Below are positions 52,006-61,655 of a DNA stretch of 64,000 bases, piece by piece. Origin of the DNA: Candidatus Kapaibacterium sp. GTDB taxonomy: Bacteria > Bacteroidota > Ignavibacteria > Kapaibacteriales > UBA2268. Where the stretch lies: positions 96,001-160,000 of the forward strand of contig OY762428.1 in the NCBI GenBank assembly GCA_963665665.1, given 5' to 3'. The stretch's first letter is position 1, and each line of letters begins with the position of its first letter. Made by a program: the position numbers and the translations under genes. A model generated the notes under the pieces. The model saw nothing but the letters and a program-made list of their open reading frames with translations. It was not told the origin of the DNA and did not search any database.

Positions 52006-54369
52006 CTATTCCTTCATCACCTTGCAGGTTGAGACAATTTTTCCGCCGGAACTTATTTTTAGTACATAAGCGCCGGAAGGGATTTCAGGAACTTTGAACG
52101 GCAGGCTGAATGTTCCGGGAGTCAGGTTGGTATAAGTCGTTCTGGCGGTTTCTATGCCCTGGATATTATAAAGAACTGCCTGTATTTCTGTTTCGGAGTT
52201 GTTTTCAAGGACGAATGTAAACCTGTCCCGGAAGGGATTTGGGTATGTAGATATATTCTGAGATTGTGGCATTTCTTCGATGATTACATTTGGGTCTGTA
52301 AAGTCAAATACTGTTATGAAGGCATTTTGAGTACATGATAAAGAATCTATTTGAGCATCTTCACTTAAATAAAAGTCAGAAGCCTTAGTAAAGCCTCCAA
52401 CATAGACTTTATAATTATCACAATAAACACTTCTGGCGCTTACTCTTCCGGAGCCTCCGATAAATGTTGAATATAGCAATGTATCGCCGGATGGATCTAC
52501 TTTCATAAAGGTAGCGTCGAAGTTCATATACTCATCAAACGGCGGTTGTTTTTCCTTCATTATAGCATCTTCGCTTACTTCAAGTTCCCTTCCCGAAGAA
52601 TAGCCCCCCATGTATATATATCCGGATGGGTCGGAATCAATAAACACCCCGTAATCATCACCGTCGTTTGTACCATATATAGCTGTAAATTCATTATCAT
52701 AGTTGCCGTCAAATCTTACAAGCATGTAATCGCTATCCGGACCATCATCAATAATATTTCCTTTCATATTCGGCAGATCTTTAGATCTGGTGTAACCTCC
52801 GAGATAAAAATTATTATCGTCAATATATAACAGTTTTGCTACCGAATCCATAAGAGTACCACCGAAATAGCTTAGATATTCCAGATTTTTGAAGTCAGAA
52901 CTTATCTCCATGAAAAATATATCAGTGTGCTTACTGTCCGCAAAACCTGTATCATTAGCTATTGTATCTCGGGCATTTACCGTTAGAGGCAATCCGGTAC
53001 AATATGTATTACCAGCAAATACCAAATTACCGTTACTCTTTCGGAAACCGTCCTTGATTTCAAAAAGGCCTGATCCATCACCTCCAACCCTTGCTGCGGA
53101 CAATAACGTTTTCATTCCGTGGTCAAATTTACAAATGAATTCATTTCCGACTATAAGAGTTGTTTTATCAAGGTCGCATTCGGGAAACTTTGTAGAACCA
53201 TGTTTACCAGCAATAATTATCCCATCATCATACACATCCATCCAATGGCAATATTCTCTATCAAAAACGCCAAAATAACTTGACATCAACAAACTATCCA
53301 AAGTGGAATTAAAACAGGAAACAAAAACATTTATCGTACCTTCATCATTTGTTGGCCCATCTTTTATTACCCCCTCTGTAACAGGAAAATTGTTTGAGGA
53401 TGTTTCTCCGGCAATATATAGCTTCCCATTGTATGTTTTGAAAGATTTTAACCTGTCCTTTTCAAATCCACCAATGTATGCTAATAAATTAACATGATTA
53501 TTTTTATTAAGCCTTGCAACAATGACTCCCATGTTGCCCCAAATTCTTGAACTGTAAGCTCCTTCTGTATAAGGTAATTTCCTGGAATAAGTATATCCAG
53601 CAACATAATTTGTATCACCAAGAGCAGCAAATTTTTCGAAAGAATCACCGATATCACCTCCAAAATATGATGAATACACAAGCGGGTCTATCACAAGTGG
53701 CAGATCCGGATCGTAATTGCCGGGGGAAAGCCCCACGCTGCCGTCGCTATTAAGTATGAATCGGCAGGGAACAGCGCTAAGGCGGCTGTCGCCGGGCTTG
53801 CCGCTCTCCTGGTAGGCAAATATCTGTCCGTGCTTTATTTCGCCGAGGCTTGTACCGAGTACAAGGCTGCCTTCCGCATCAATATCAATATAATCCTGGC
53901 CGGTGAATTTCATCATGATATTCTCCGGATCGGCTCCGGGATGAAGTATGAAGTCATATCTCATACCCGTGGCATCGAAATAATACCTGATATCAGTACC
54001 AGGATAAATATCTTTTGCAGTTACGGAAGAAAATGAAGCAACATGCTTTGCCCATTTTGTGGGGTCGTTCCCGGTGAAGTAGTTGCGAACAATTTTATTC
54101 CTGCCGGATGGAGCAAACTCAGGAACGGCTGAAGTGCCAGCAAGGCTGCACTTAATAACATGCCCCGCAAGGCTTGTATCCCGCCCGTTTACTTCCATTT
54201 TTGAATAATCATAAATCACGCTGCCGGGCATAATCCATGCCGTCATCCCGGCGCTTTCAGTCTTGTAGCGTACATCCGCATCCCACTGGCCACGGTTCTC
54301 GATGAATTCGGAGGCGAAGAGAGGGGATGAGAGGAAGAGTAACAATATTAAGTATTTTTTCTTTTTCAT
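52006..54369 (-). CDS. SBBP-type beta-propeller protein with T9SS CTD (paralog of 5105-7636)
   Basis: FIENRGQW, LVIDPLVYSSYFGG, YPNPF...SGAY. Confidence 0.85.
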   Translation of the reverse strand: MKKKKYLILLLFLSSPLFASEFIENRGQWDADVRYKTESAGMTAWIMPGSVIYDYSKMEVNGRDTSLAGHVIKCSLAGTSAVPEFAPSGRNKIVRNYFTGNDPTKWAKHVASFSSVTAKDIYPGTDIRYYFDATGMRYDFILHPGADPENIMMKFTGQDYIDIDAEGSLVLGTSLGEIKHGQIFAYQESGKPGDSRLSAVPCRFILNSDGSVGLSPGNYDPDLPLVIDPLVYSSYFGGDIGDSFEKFAALGDTNYVAGYTYSRKLPYTEGAYSSRIWGNMGVIVARLNKNNHVNLLAYIGGFEKDRLKSFKTYNGKLYIAGETSSNNFPVTEGVIKDGPTNDEGTINVFVSCFNSTLDSLLMSSYFGVFDREYCHWMDVYDDGIIIAGKHGSTKFPECDLDKTTLIVGNEFICKFDHGMKTLLSAARVGGDGSGLFEIKDGFRKSNGNLVFAGNTYCTGLPLTVNARDTIANDTGFADSKHTDIFFMEISSDFKNLEYLSYFGGTLMDSVAKLLYIDDNNFYLGGYTRSKDLPNMKGNIIDDGPDSDYMLVRFDGNYDNEFTAIYGTNDGDDYGVFIDSDPSGYIYMGGYSSGRELEVSEDAIMKEKQPPFDEYMNFDATFMKVDPSGDTLLYSTFIGGSGRVSARSVYCDNYKVYVGGFTKASDFYLSEDAQIDSLSCTQNAFITVFDFTDPNVIIEEMPQSQNISTYPNPFRDRFTFVLENNSETEIQAVLYNIQGIETARTTYTNLTPGTFSLPFKVPEIPSGAYVLKISSGGKIVSTCKVMKE

Positions 54370-55142
54370 TGTTTGATTTCCTTTAACGCTTTTTGTTTGT
54401 AGCAATCGTTGATATAAATCAGGGCTTCATCCTCGAGAATAATTTCTTTGGTTACCAACTGCAAATCCAAATTATATATGTATTTGGTAATTGTTTTGCC
54501 ATAAACATATTCCCCTTGAGACCAACGGCTTGCTATCATAGTATTCAACTCACTCAGGTTAGCCATGTCGATCTCTAAATTTACTGTGATTACAACGAAA
54601 TTATTTTTATCCTCTCCTGTATAAATAATTTCCTCATTTATAAACTCGAAATTCCCGGGTTTATCAGGGTATTTTCTGTTAAATAATATAATGCCGTCAA
54701 TATAGGGTTTGACCGGTTTTTTATATATACTTTTACCTCCAATATCATATTGAATACAATCATAGTTTTCTGATCTTCTAAGACTTGACCAAAATCCTGA
54801 AAAGTATATTTCATCAGTTGTACAAAATTTCTTTGTATTATTATTCAATATCTTAAAAGAATGATCCGGATGTTTCTTTTGACCAAAATCTGTGGTCCAA
54901 AAAATCCAATATTGTACAGAGGAATCGCTGCTTATCCAATAACTATATGGTGTAAAATTTGGAAATTTGTCAATTTCCTTCGGACAATTATTCAGACAAA
55001 AAGAATCTCTAACAAAAATCCCCTTATAACATTTAGGAACAGAAGAATATCCTCTGCTGCTGCAAGAATATAATAATATTGATAGAAAGATTAATACAAT
55101 GGTTTGATTATAAAATAATATCATTCGATTAATTTGTTTCAT
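54366..55142 (-). CDS. Lipoprotein, candidate immunity protein for the upstream RHS toxin
   Basis: Lipobox LYSC; directly follows the toxin stop; start uncertain (55124/55142/55172). Confidence 0.6.
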   Translation of the reverse strand: MKQINRMILFYNQTIVLIFLSILLYSCSSRGYSSVPKCYKGIFVRDSFCLNNCPKEIDKFPNFTPYSYWISSDSSVQYWIFWTTDFGQKKHPDHSFKILNNNTKKFCTTDEIYFSGFWSSLRRSENYDCIQYDIGGKSIYKKPVKPYIDGIILFNRKYPDKPGNFEFINEEIIYTGEDKNNFVVITVNLEIDMANLSELNTMIASRWSQGEYVYGKTITKYIYNLDLQLVTKEIILEDEALIYINDCYKQKALKEIKQ

Positions 55143-55844
55143 TTTGCTTTTCATTATTAGTGTCACCTCCATTGGATGATCTTTCGGTATTCGTCAAAAA
55201 TTCTTTTCTCTTCTTTAGTGCATACATGATGTATTTTCTAGTTTTTATTTTAGACTTGCGTTCCGCAGCAGCCCCGTTTTCAGTTGCAGTTGGTAAATCG
55301 CCGAGTGTATGGACAACAGTATTTACAATATTTTTTCCAGAGGTCGCATCTCCACTAGGCCACACCTGCCAGCCTTCATGAGATGGACAGTCCTGATCCT
55401 GAACAGTATGTAGCGCTGCGCCGAGCTTTTTAAAATCTCCGGTTTCAATAAAATCGTTAATATTTGTTTCGATAAAATTTTTCATTTTTTTATCTGCTTT
55501 TTCAATTGCTGCTTCCCTATCGCCATCCACCGCCTCAAGATCATCTTGACTTAACATTGCATGCTTATATTGATTTTTCTGATCTTCATCAACTTCCACA
55601 TTACCTTCTACCATCTGCTCTATCTCGTTATCTGTTAAACCTAAATCTGCAGCAGCATCTTCTGTAATACTTTTGTGAACGTTTACTGGCCATACCGCTG
55701 CCCATCCTCCAGTATTATCTAAAAGATTTACAGGATTATTCATACAATAATGATATGGAGTCCATTCATAATACATTTCCCACAGCGGGTCAATGCTGGT
55801 AAAGCGGCCCAGGGCGTAGCTGTACTTGCGCACGCCAAAGTCGC

Positions 55845-55894
55845 TCCCGATTGACTTTTGGAATCAAATGCGCTCGGGATTTCGCTACGCTCAA
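55845..55894 (-). mobile_element. 50-bp hairpin micro-insertion (frameshifting)
   Basis: TTGAGCGTAGCGAAATCCCGA...TCGGGA inserted within a Gly codon (G|GC). Confidence 0.75.
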
Positions 55895-55924
55895 CCAGCC
55901 CGGTTTCAGCGTCTTTTTCCTTGC

Positions 55925-55954
55925 TCCCGACAAGTCGGGATTTCGCAAGCTCAA
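55925..55954 (-). mobile_element. 30-bp hairpin micro-insertion (in-frame)
   Basis: TTGAGCTTGCGAAATCCCGACTTGTCGGGA inserted within a Gly codon (G|GC). Confidence 0.75.
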
Positions 55955-56781
55955 CAATGAACGAGGATTGAAACCACACAATTTCAAAGAACTGATTGTT
56001 TACCCTTTAATTTAATCATATTTATTATTATTTCAAAGGGGTAATCTAATAATATTTCAGTATCGTAGCCCGGGCATTTTTGTAGTTTAATGATTACGAA
56101 CGAGAACTAACAGCCCCGTAGCTGTGGCATATCTATCTTCTGTCGCTCCTACGGAACTTTTTTTATATAATTCCGATACTCTATCGTCTGTCCTATCCGA
56201 AAGAAAAGAGGACTTCCCTCATGGGGCCTTCTAAAAGGTTAGAAACCCGGTCATTCTGGAGGAGCGAATCGACCGAAGAATCCATCTTTGTTCGCAGATA
56301 ATGTAATAAGAATGCATCCTTCGCTTTGCTCAGGACTTTCATAATTTTTGAAAAAATAATATATCTGAATAGGCATAAATTTTAAATCGTGGAAATTGTT
56401 TTGCAAATAATAATCAGAAATGTTTTGTATACCCGGAAACTGATTTGGGATTATTTAATATTTTGATATTACAAAAATACCTTGATGCCGTAGTTCTGAT
56501 GCTTCCTAAAAATCAATAACCCGGATATTTTTTTAATCAATTGTTAAGAAGAAAAAAAATTAGTGAAGCGTATGTATGAATTTTTATAAGGCCACTGGTA
56601 TTGAATATTAGTTTTTCATAAAATGATAAACCGTGGTTTATTGCATCACAATCCACTCTGATTTTACTCAATTTTTTTGTAATTTTGAAATTCCGTATTG
56701 TGGCATTATGATATATATCTGTTTGTCGTATTTGCGGAATCTCGGAACATATTGGTTTATAAATCTATCAGAGACAGGGGC

Positions 56782-59402: not shown

Positions 59403-59484
59403 TATTCAAACCTCCGGAAGGTTTGTGTTTTATATCGCCGGTAATATTATTGGCAAAGTTCTTGAACAGGATACTTCCGAAGGT

Positions 59485-60430
59485 TTTGGCATTCAGCTCC
59501 GTAGGAGCGGAATTTTTGTAGATAATGTTTACATTGTGATTATTAAAAGCTCCGTAGGAGCGACAGAGTCTTTTGGCCATGTCGCCCCGAAAAAATTCCC
59601 CTCGTTGAGGGGTGGCGAGCGCAGCGAGTTCCCGACACGTCGGGACAGGCTGGGGTGGTTTCTTTTTCTTAGTCTTCGGGACGTTGCGTCTTTATCCACG
59701 AGCTAAAGCACGTGGCTATTGATTTTGACGATTATAAGGCTGGAAGGTCATTCTGAGCGCCAGCGAAGGATCCATTCTTCATAAATTATCCGCAAGGAAG
59801 ATGGATTCTTCGGTCTCAAGCTCCGTCAGAATGACGGATGGGAATGTCCCCCGCTGGCGGGGGTGTCCGAAGGACGGGGGTGGACTTCCGGAAAATTCCC
59901 CTCCCTTGGAGGGGATTAAAGGGGTGGTTTCTTTTTCTTAGCCTCCGCACCTTGCACATTTATCCACGAGCTAAAGCACGTGGCTATTGAACTTGACGAT
60001 GGTAAAACTGCATGTCATTCTGAGCGCCAGCGAAGAATCCATTCTTAATGCATTCCCTGCAAACGAAAATGGATTCTTCGGTCGCAAGCTCCTTCAGAAT
60101 GACGGATGGGAATGTCCCCCGCTGTCGCCGACGTGTCGGGAAAGGACGGGGGTGGACTTCCGGAAAAATTCCCCTCCTAATGTAGGAGGGAATTACAGGG
60201 GTGGTTTGCTTTCTTTGCCTTCGCACCTTGCACATTTATCCACGAGCTAAAGCACGTGGCTATTGAATTTGACGATTATAAAGCTGGGATGTCATTCTGA
60301 GCGCCAGCGAAGAATCCATTCTTATTACACTATCTGCAAACAAAGATGGATTCTTCGGTCGCAAGCTCCGGAAGCCTGCACCTGCCTGCACCGATTTATC
60401 GGTGACGTGTCGGGGAATGACAACATAATA
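59485..60430. repeat. REP-like mosaic with ~270-bp composite unit repeated about three times
   Basis: TTATCCACGAGCTAAAGCACGTGGCTATTG at ~59692, ~59960, ~60236, each followed by GTCATTCTGAGCGCCAGCGAAG...GAATGAC. Confidence 0.88.
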
Positions 60431-60461
60431 CCTCCTTCTCCGGCTCTTACTCCCCGTTATT

Positions 60462-61655
60462 CCACCCCAATGAACAGGCCGCCGGCCTTAATTCCCCAAC
60501 CTGTGGTCTCAATGAATCGAATAATTTCCTTAATTCAACGCTGTTTTGAACCAGAATCCTGATGTTTGGGCTAATTGCTTGGATTGCAGGGCTTTAAACT
60601 GCCTTGGCCGGAGGTATTGAACTACTGTTTGGCCTTAATGTAGTGAAATTTGGCCTCATTGAACACTTGGTTGGCTTTACTGAACACTTGGTTGATCTTA
60701 CTGAACACTTGGTTAATCTTACTGAACACTTGGTTGATCTTACTGAACACTTGGTTGATCTTACTGAACACTTGGTTGACCTTACTGAACACTTGGTTGA
60801 TCTTACTGAACACTTGGTTGACCTTACTGAACACTTGGTTGGCTTTACTGAACACTTGGTTGACCTTACTGAACACTTGGTTGATCTTACTGAACACTTG
60901 GTTGATCTTACTGAACATGTTCTTTGCCTCCGACCAAGAGTTCAATGACTTCGACCAAGGCAGCAATAACTTCGAACAAGGCATCAATAACTTCGAACAA
61001 GGCAGCAATATCATCAAACATCGGTGCAATAGCTTCAAACAAGAGTTCATTATCATCAAACATCGGTGCATCGATTTGGAACAAGACAGCAATGAAGCAA
61101 AACATTGCTGCAATAGCTTAGAACATCGGTGCAATGACTCCGACCAAGGCATCAATAATTCCGACCAAGGCGTCAATGAAGCAAAACATTGGTTCAATAG
61201 CTTCAACCAAGAGTTCATTATCTTCAAACAAGGCGGCAATGACTCCGACCAAGGCGTCAATAAAGCAAAACATTGCTGCAATAGTGTCGAACAAGGCATC
61301 ATTAAAATCAAACATCAGTGCAATGGCGTCGACCATTGTTACATTGATTTCAAACATCGGTGCATTGCCGCTGCCCCTTCCTACCTCCCCCCGGCCACCT
61401 CCTTCGGAAGAAGGAGGAGTTAATTCTATGATATTTAATTTCTTATCCCCTCCTAAAGTAGGAGGGGAATACAGGGGTGGTTTGCTTTCTTTGCTTCTGG
61501 TCAGTGCGCCATTATCTTCAAACATCGGTGCATTGCCTCTGCCCCTTCCTACCTCCCCCCGGCCACCTCCTTCGGAAGAAGGAGGAGTTAATTCTATGAT
61601 ATTTAATTTCTTATCCCCTCCTAAAGTAGGAGGGGAATACAGGGGTGGTTTTTTT
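60462..61655. repeat. Bipartite 21-bp tandem-array element, copy B
   Basis: Same head as copy A; ~12 units CTTACTGAACACTTGGTTGAT; ~20 second-family units; 168-bp tandem duplication at tail. Confidence 0.9.

Follow-up and report, generated by a model that had tools for sequence, protein, structure and literature searches.

Short palindromic repeats located inside genes or inside other palindromes are among the closest described counterparts of the elements presented here. As reported in the sections of PMC3733652 and PMC3116915 that treat their location, REPs are sometimes found within genes and sometimes within other palindromes, and both in-frame intragenic insertions of REP type and insertion into palindromic targets have been documented in other families (parts of PMC3733652 and PMC10969869). 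SDR repeats are also named in the corresponding part of PMC3116915. For REPs of the CGTC class, no dedicated transposase is known according to the passages of PMC3733652 devoted to them. In IS91, as described in the relevant part of PMC13181058, the target tetranucleotide, 5'-CTTG or GTTC, is essential and lies adjacent to one end of the element, and a palindrome is located beside the other cleavage site. The micro-hairpin elements that are the subject of this work represent a new, tag-less branch of the known REP-like miniature palindromic repeats, for which intragenic in-frame precedents already exist.

Two such elements interrupt the remnant of an RHS-associated core in the 64,000-nt stretch of Candidatus Kapaibacterium sp. 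DNA that was analysed (contig OY762428.1, referred to below as the window), which is part of the 5.46-Mb genome under study, G000 (Table 1). An earlier note on this DNA had reported two related inserts here, and their coordinates, strand and letters were all reproduced, including the common 5' module (TTGAGC, 2-3 nt, GCGAAATCCCGA) and the 3' arm TCGGGA with which both inserts end. In both cases the insertion point lies directly behind the first G of a GGC codon, 30 nt (55895-55924) separate the two inserts, and their boundaries are unambiguous and free of target duplication; the precise insertion that had been claimed is thus confirmed, but the codon at the empty paralogous site is GGA and not GGC. 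When both inserts are skipped, a 35-residue RHS core peptide can be read by eye, in agreement with the claim that their deletion restores an uninterrupted core. It is also correct that one insert, the 30-bp element at site A, is in frame (it adds 10 codons) and that the other, the 50-bp element at site B, causes a frameshift; the latter is 1 nt shorter than three 51-bp copies found elsewhere in the genome. The hairpin ascribed to both insert ends is clear in the 30-bp copy (fold -5.5 kcal/mol, z -2.46), but the 50-bp copy is thermodynamically unremarkable (z -0.96) even though its 6-bp closing stem is identical, and the same applies to the 51-bp copies. The similarity of the inserts is more than chance, because the exact 5' module has 6 matches in the 5.46-Mb genome and 0 in the reversed-pattern control, and the 12-mer core has 3 matches in the window at no more than 1 mismatch when 0.34 are expected.

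Table 1. Positions of the micro-hairpin elements, their host cassette and related features; coordinates in the upper seven rows are those of the window, in the lower five those of the genome
Feature	Position	Strand	Remarks
30-bp micro-hairpin element, site A	55925..55954	-	5' module TTGAGC-TT-GCGAAA, 6-bp stem TCCCGA/TCGGGA, loop CTTG
50-bp micro-hairpin element, site B	55845..55894	-	5' module with spacer GTA, same closing stem, 24-nt loop
Orphan RHS C-terminal cassette	55129..55964	-	RHS-associated core remnant from about 10 nt before site A, then variable tip
Tip open frame, 234 aa	55129-55833	-	3' of the frameshifting insert; no Pfam family
Downstream 268-aa ORF overlapping the tip end	54366..55172	-	No Pfam family
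AT-rich repeat unit, 5' boundary of the orphan	55965..56085		Similarity to other units judged by eye
Sister module GCGAGC-GCA-GCGAGT	59615..59645	+	Stem TCCCGA/TCGGGA, loop CACG; within a composite repeat, outside RHS genes
Site A	Window and paralogous orphan 2612576-2612605		30-bp copy in both
Site B	Window only		50-bp copy; paralog at 2.6124 Mb empty
Site C	631.9 kb and paralog 2.6146 Mb		51-bp copy in both
Site D	943.8 kb		51-bp copy
Site E, DHLGN motif of RHS core	949.29 kb		19-nt partial hairpin of the sister subfamily, after CTTG

The assignment of the host to the RHS-associated core family, also made in the earlier note, is supported by a TIGR03696 match at window positions 55708-55842, which at 40.9 bits exceeds the curated cut-off of 32.5; the match extends over model positions 32-75 only, as the inserts separate the remainder of the core from it. 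No full-length RHS gene or RHS body was found upstream of the cassette, where a transketolase operon, on the opposite strand, and the AT-rich repeat are located; the cassette thus stands alone as a 5'-truncated orphan, devoid of its 5' part and of a start. It is degenerate: two inserts divide its conserved autoprotease region, and one of them shifts the frame. In the characterised Rhs proteins covered by the pertinent part of PMC8765631, the region that is interrupted here corresponds to the aspartyl autoprotease by which the cocoon is sealed, and given this role, inserts would be expected to persist only in silent cassettes. The 268-aa ORF downstream is possibly a cognate immunity or lipoprotein gene, judging from its position only. 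By eye, an AT-rich unit of about 100 nt similar to that at the 5' boundary of the cassette precedes both site-A RHS orphans and also a RAYT-like gene, which is considered below.

Six exact-module copies are present in G000, at four sites (A-D) that all lie within RHS cores. Their lengths are 30, 30, 51, 51, 51 and 50 bp, so that five of the six are multiples of 3 and are open in the frame used, and at all four sites the elements have one orientation and one codon phase. Paralogs in which the site is empty are known for three of the four sites (B, C and D), and the insertion at site B is independently proven because the paralog at 2.6124 Mb has this site empty. The empty-site alleles for which the earlier note had suggested a search are represented by this paralog and by the empty-site-B joint in contigs of two sequencing runs (X1 and X7); a third run, X4, contains a contig with a 50-base skip at the same place. 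Filled site B occurs in contigs of X4 and X7 and is present in two related organisms, B and C, and at site A organism B carries a variant that is about 18 nt longer and has a GAA spacer. Since site B is filled and site A occupied in organisms B and C, the insertions predate the split of these organisms. Among the contigs compared, no excision allele other than the empty paralog was found, in a comparison of contigs rather than reads, to which rare alleles (rare excision included) and present-day mobility are invisible.

Several further irregularities of the RHS loci and their surroundings deserve mention. The only candidate for a copy of the exact-module subfamily outside RHS cores is a diverged intergenic long-form copy at 4160104-4160155 (plus strand) of G000, which has 4 mismatches in the 5' module, the same closing stem, and follows TTG. 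At about 941.8-942.0 kb, an RHS core is cut after DHLGNVRATVS by an AT-rich sequence of about 120 nt that replaces the stretch up to FMEEG, an interruption that differs in kind from the hairpin inserts. T-rich heptamer tracts (such as TCAATTG, TTCATTG and TTAATTG) lie upstream of the RHS orphans at 943.8, 947.3, 2614.5 and 3376.8 kb; by eye, they are similar to low-complexity tracts found beside the element in other phyla, and they may bear on why elements landed near orphans.

The element is not confined to RHS loci or to this species. Its anatomy throughout the family is TTGAGC, 2-4 nt, GCGAAATCCCG and a loop, followed by CGGGA or CGGGG as the end, in most cases within 28-33 nt and with neither a GTAG nor a CGTC tag. 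The 5' module is oriented, conserved and unpaired, the stem has 5-6 bp of the form (T)CCCG.N/N'.CGGG(A/G), and the loop is free to vary from 3 to about 45 nt. In a panel of 101 genomes of the same family, the element is multi-copy in three, each of another genus: a degenerate pattern finds 33 copies in G000, 22 in G009 and 18 in G054, the latter two being element-rich relatives, and two singletons occur besides. A cross-species pattern scan, in which each species was represented by one genome, returned at least 120 loci against a chance expectation, from uniform-composition arithmetic, of about 280 matches, i.e., a few hundred; even so, most of the loci listed close into a hairpin, and their phyla include Bacteroidota, Ignavibacteriota, Desulfobacterota, Zixibacteria, Poribacteria, Planctomycetota and other phyla. 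The modal length is 30-31 nt in the 108 complete elements with distinct flanks that are found among the matches listed. The fifth stem pair covaries, with C-G in 33 cases and A-T in 27; it is paired in 66 of 84 elements when 37.9 are expected, and none of 1000 shuffles reaches 66. This covariation, which was scored by a script (MAFFT left-aligned 59 of 66 short copies, with the 3' arms unaligned), demonstrates that the hairpin is under selection. No recurrent protein family was found within 1.5 kb of the element across 120 loci, the largest cluster comprising 3 loci, which indicates that the elements are non-autonomous. The earlier proposal of a family of non-autonomous micro-elements is thereby upheld, with further copies in G000 and in other genomes, precise and duplication-free insertion, and paralogs with empty sites.

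The preservation of the reading frame in most of the G000 copies could be explained if the inserts were removed after transcription, in an intron-like manner or through translational bypass, so that the gene remained functionally intact. Besides the five copies that are multiples of 3 and open in frame, the single phase and orientation would fit such a scenario. However, the 50-bp copy of the window frameshifts a cassette that has neither a 5' part nor a start, and the same element resides in non-coding repeats of other genomes. The Rfam scan of window positions 55600-56200 matched no family (the best hit, CRISPR-DR9, reached 16.2 bits against a gathering threshold of 45, E 1.3), nor are there any evident pairs of matching codons for take-off and landing. 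We find this explanation scarcely credible.

The sequence G/GC, which had been put forward as the target on the basis of the two sites in the window, does not describe the family. Among the 108 elements, C-W-W-G is favoured as the left flank, with a G at position -1 in 91 of them; the commonest left flanks are CAAG (17), CTTG (14), AATG (9) and ATTG (7). At the RHS sites of G000 the left flanks are ATTG, CTGG (site B), ATTG and TTTG, three of which fit W-W-G. Insertion beside a specific tetranucleotide and without target duplication is shared with IS91 and IS200/IS605 as these are described in the part of PMC13181058 concerned with them, and the two commonest left flanks are the CTTG of IS91 and its complement CAAG; unlike in IS91, GTTC is not among the common flanks, and the G000 RHS sites have the four tetranucleotides just listed. 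The element differs further from all of these transposons in its size (28-51 nt), in having one hairpin flush with the 3' end, and in the lack of cognate Y1 ends.

Where hairpins are available, their loops are entered. Nine of the 108 elements lie inside host-hairpin loops, as opposed to 0.585 in shuffles, five of the nine coming from one G009 repeat family. The genome of G009 contains about 96 NTS-like host hairpins, of which 35 with the loop CTTGA are empty and 22 are filled, all with the identical junction CTTG-element-A and no duplication; the 22 filled hairpins could in part stem from amplification of one filled host and not from independent insertions. In G054 the element is found within a larger repeat, and in both genomes it nests in GTCAT-tagged, NTS-like hairpins. 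For the RHS sites of G000, hairpin-loop targeting was considered and rejected: no stable hairpin was found at the empty sites, whose sequences fold no better than shuffles (z from -0.64 to +1.40). No replication-linked orientation bias was detected with replichores defined by GC skew (p 0.70).

The junctions hold one further regularity. Of the 6 positions that lie exactly 2 nt from a junction in three filled/empty pairs, 4 differ (binomial 0.00018 at a 6% rate), and there is no difference at the positions 1 nt away; most of the changes convert the flanks towards those of site A (TTG-element-GC). A +2 change is also present in 4 of the 22 filled hairpins of G009 and in 0 of the 35 empty ones (Fisher p 0.0185), though the four variants may be a single lineage. 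Possibly, the target requirement was satisfied only by mutated alleles, or the flanks of the donor were co-converted, or the ends of the element are fuzzy. Such changes would not be expected from simple cut-and-paste into an unchanged target, and in this respect they count against the reading that we favour, namely old insertions of a mobile hairpin. They would be natural if there were no transposase at all and the hairpins were copied by template switching or by short-patch gene conversion that carried 1-2 flanking bases along, and RHS cores do recombine among paralogs. Nevertheless, the 22 insertions of G009 and the copies in other phyla lie in unrelated flanks that have only the tetranucleotide in common, and aligned gene conversion cannot produce four different positions within the RHS core. 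We therefore regard copying of this kind as very unlikely, and insertion of a mobile hairpin remains our preferred account of the inserts.

How the elements came to be in RHS genes is a separate matter. RHS cores, in which all six exact-module copies lie, span about 0.06-0.1% of the G000 genome. Within this genome, the elements are restricted to orphans: six of the 9 short orphans carry them, but none of the 6 long or full-length cores does (Fisher p 0.028). A confinement to RHS cores, as proposed in the earlier note, is seen for the exact-module copies of G000, but targeting of RHS cores as a trait of the whole family is not supported. Among 144 loci from other genomes that were checked for neighbouring RHS cores and enzyme genes, one has an RHS core in its vicinity, 2.2 kb away, and none has the element inside a core; all three RHS cores of G009 and G054 are uninterrupted. 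The in-frame insert, for which the earlier note had suggested a protein search (VERSEIP/VELAKS), was found in the protein collection searched only in the two proteins of G000 itself, and longer proteins with the insert were not found by a search that relies on shared words and is therefore weak. No report of small-repeat insertions in Rhs cores was found in the titles and abstracts of the papers listed, 10 of 37 matching ones. The link to RHS genes is local to this lineage and is a rule neither for the element family nor for RHS genes.

Tolerance of inserts by orphans alone fails to account for the location of all six copies, because the cores make up such a small part of the genome and intergenic DNA is far larger. 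In addition, the shared orientation and codon phase, together with the five of six lengths that are multiples of 3, hint at more than neutral decay. The earlier note had proposed micro-elements mobilised by HUH enzymes of the IS200/IS605 or RAYT type, directed to RHS cores at G/GC, that could regulate the recombination of orphan tips. Duplication-free insertion beside a preferred tetranucleotide and the hairpin at one end are compatible with HUH chemistry, the six of six copies in RHS cores are far above chance, a Y1_Tnp match is found at least once in each of the three element-rich genomes, and IS91-family elements, in the portion of PMC13181058 that deals with them, are duplication-free and need flanking CTTG or GTTC. 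The chemistry is nonetheless unproven. A RAYT-like Y1 gene exists in G000 in a single copy (1821805-1822266), but it is flanked on both sides by GTAG-type REPs that differ from the element and occur 29 times in G000 at no more than 2 mismatches; its homologs are found in 50 of the 101 family genomes, with none in G009 and with G054 not among the 50, and at 0 of the 144 element loci. No Y1 gene with the element's ends was found. No match to the Y2 transposase family (PF04986) was found in G000, G009 or G054, nor in any of the 14 control genomes. There is one hairpin flush with the 3' end where HUH transposons have subterminal hairpins at both ends, the family target is C-W-W-G and not G/GC, the RHS cores elsewhere are intact, and inserts common to related organisms are not dynamic on that timescale. 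As a whole, this model of HUH-mobilised elements that target RHS cores and regulate tip recombination appears quite unlikely to us. A 1399-aa frame at 2725.2-2725.8 kb of G000, which combines MmeI/Eco57I-type methyltransferase domains with a Y1_Tnp-matching segment (38.6 bits), was rejected as a specific partner: the large methyltransferase with the Y1-like segment occurs in all three element-rich genomes but is not confined to them, being found in 34 of the 101 family genomes.

A different candidate is suggested by the architecture of the element, in which an oriented upstream sequence, a specific stem and a dispensable, extendable loop are combined as they are in NTS/SsnA (described in this form in the part of PMC11893778 that treats them). 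The element could be a divergent Ssn-related motif for a small GIY-YIG single-strand nuclease and could modulate the recombination of single-stranded intermediates in RHS orphans, as has been proposed for NTS in Neisseria. In favour of this proposal, hairpins with the TCCCGA/TCGGGA stem lie on both sides of the two identical 84-aa GIY-YIG genes of G000, the element nests in the NTS-like hairpins of G009 and G054, and its 5' module resembles, by eye, an arm of the GTCATTCTGAGCG... repeat of G000. On the other hand, the hairpins beside the GIY-YIG genes are without the 5' module, and homologs of these genes occur in 34 of the 101 family genomes, with none in G009 and with G054 not among the 34, and at 1 of the 144 loci, 2.8 kb away. 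The published pattern for Ssn-related motifs (SRM) is no commoner in G000 (13 matches) than in the reversed genome (16), and it is found neither in the element, whichever strand is searched, nor at the RHS and GIY-YIG loci. The known activity of Ssn is that of a nuclease, and we know of none in integration. An Ssn-type role of the element appears unlikely to us. What the earlier note had suggested looking for, a co-occurring HUH or GIY-YIG enzyme flanked by the same hairpin, was encountered only as far as the stem is concerned: hairpins with the same stem bracket the GIY-YIG genes, but they are without the 5' module and these genes do not track the element. Overall, no RAYT, Y2 or small GIY-YIG gene that tracks the element was found.

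At 1891300-1892400 of G000 the GIY-YIG genes are arranged in tandem, each abutting the 3' part of a tRNA-Ser(GCT) in which a TCCCGA...TCGGGA hairpin takes the place of the anticodon arm. Upstream there are three tandem copies of the tRNA 5' half, again with this hairpin, and a single intact tRNA-Ser is located in between. Tandem pairs of the homologous GIY-YIG gene are also found in two other genomes, G011 and G023.

The reading that we consider likely is that the inserts are genuine and old insertions of a tiny, non-autonomous, REP-like hairpin, which colonised tolerant RHS orphans and then persisted in them. The hairpin family is spread patchily over many bacterial phyla and integrates precisely 3' of C-W-W-G without duplication, and in a hairpin loop where one is available. 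The target and loop preferences point to a candidate trans-acting enzyme, a sequence- and structure-specific single-strand DNA nuclease or transposase. In this lineage, the GC-rich RHS-associated cores of 5'-truncated, presumably silent orphans would have been colonised at four distinct sites, two of which would then have been copied by paralog duplication, and the copies would have persisted because orphans tolerate inserts. A bolder reading, which we consider very improbable, holds that these cross-phylum hairpins of about 30 nt are among the smallest mobile elements, that a candidate single-strand enzyme moves them into C-W-W-G loops with the +/-2 signature, and that in RHS cores they have been recruited, phase-locked and frame-preserving, as recombination or expression switches of silent cassettes, in parallel to NTS repeats and Ssn in Neisseria, by which incoming single-stranded DNA is restricted.

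The element resembles REP/REPIN-RAYT in being a short, multi-copy, imperfect palindrome with a conserved unpaired head, non-autonomous and, like them, patchily distributed, but it has no GTAG tag, no RAYT is flanked by it or co-occurs with it, and its copies are singlets and not inverted doublets. Cyanobacterial SDR, described by Elhai et al. in 2008, are reportedly hairpin-forming elements of 21-27 nt, without an encoded enzyme, that lie within other repeats and within tracts of tandem heptamers. For the present element, nesting in repeats and contexts of heptamer or octamer tracts were observed; its sequence family and its phyla differ from those of SDR. Like the CGTC-REPs, NTS, dRS3 and SRM, it combines an oriented sequence upstream with a stem of specific sequence and a loop that is free to vary (as set out in the relevant part of PMC11893778); from SRM/Ssn it is set apart by its failure to fit the published SRM pattern and by the lack of tracking by the G000-type GIY-YIG gene. 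As in Rickettsia palindromic elements (RPE), in the accounts given of them in parts of PMC10969869 and PMC3733652, a palindromic repeat lies in frame within coding sequence and adds residues without stops. Unlike RPE, which measure about 100-150 bp and occur in many unrelated functional genes, the G000 elements are 30-51 bp long and occur only in truncated orphan RHS cores.

These observations imply that orphan toxin cassettes can gather precise and mostly frame-preserving micro-insertions in the conserved autoprotease region. RHS cores with such inserts are truncated or missed by family models, which is of relevance for annotation, and the inserts bear on judging which orphans could still recombine into a working gene. 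If the element is still mobile, it may offer a clean system in which to approach the enzyme behind tag-less REP-like repeats: the element measures 28 nt, its target tetranucleotide is defined, and a single genome contains tens of identical hairpin sites, both filled and empty.

The window contains two more repeat-rich regions. The sister subfamily, whose module is listed in Table 1, has 27 copies in G000; in the window, the module is part of an array of units of about 240 bp (59480-60600), which are built from small hairpin modules (GTCATTCTGAGCG... arms, CCCCTC..GAGGGG and TCCCGA..TCGGGA). Single hairpin modules are present in some units of this array and absent from adjacent ones, units 2 and 3 being without the sister module, and about 30-60 such composites exist genome-wide. 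The array is followed, at 60600-61450, by long tandem repeats with a 21-nt period that are open on both strands, as judged from ORF translations only (e.g., LVDLTEH and NQVFSKI).
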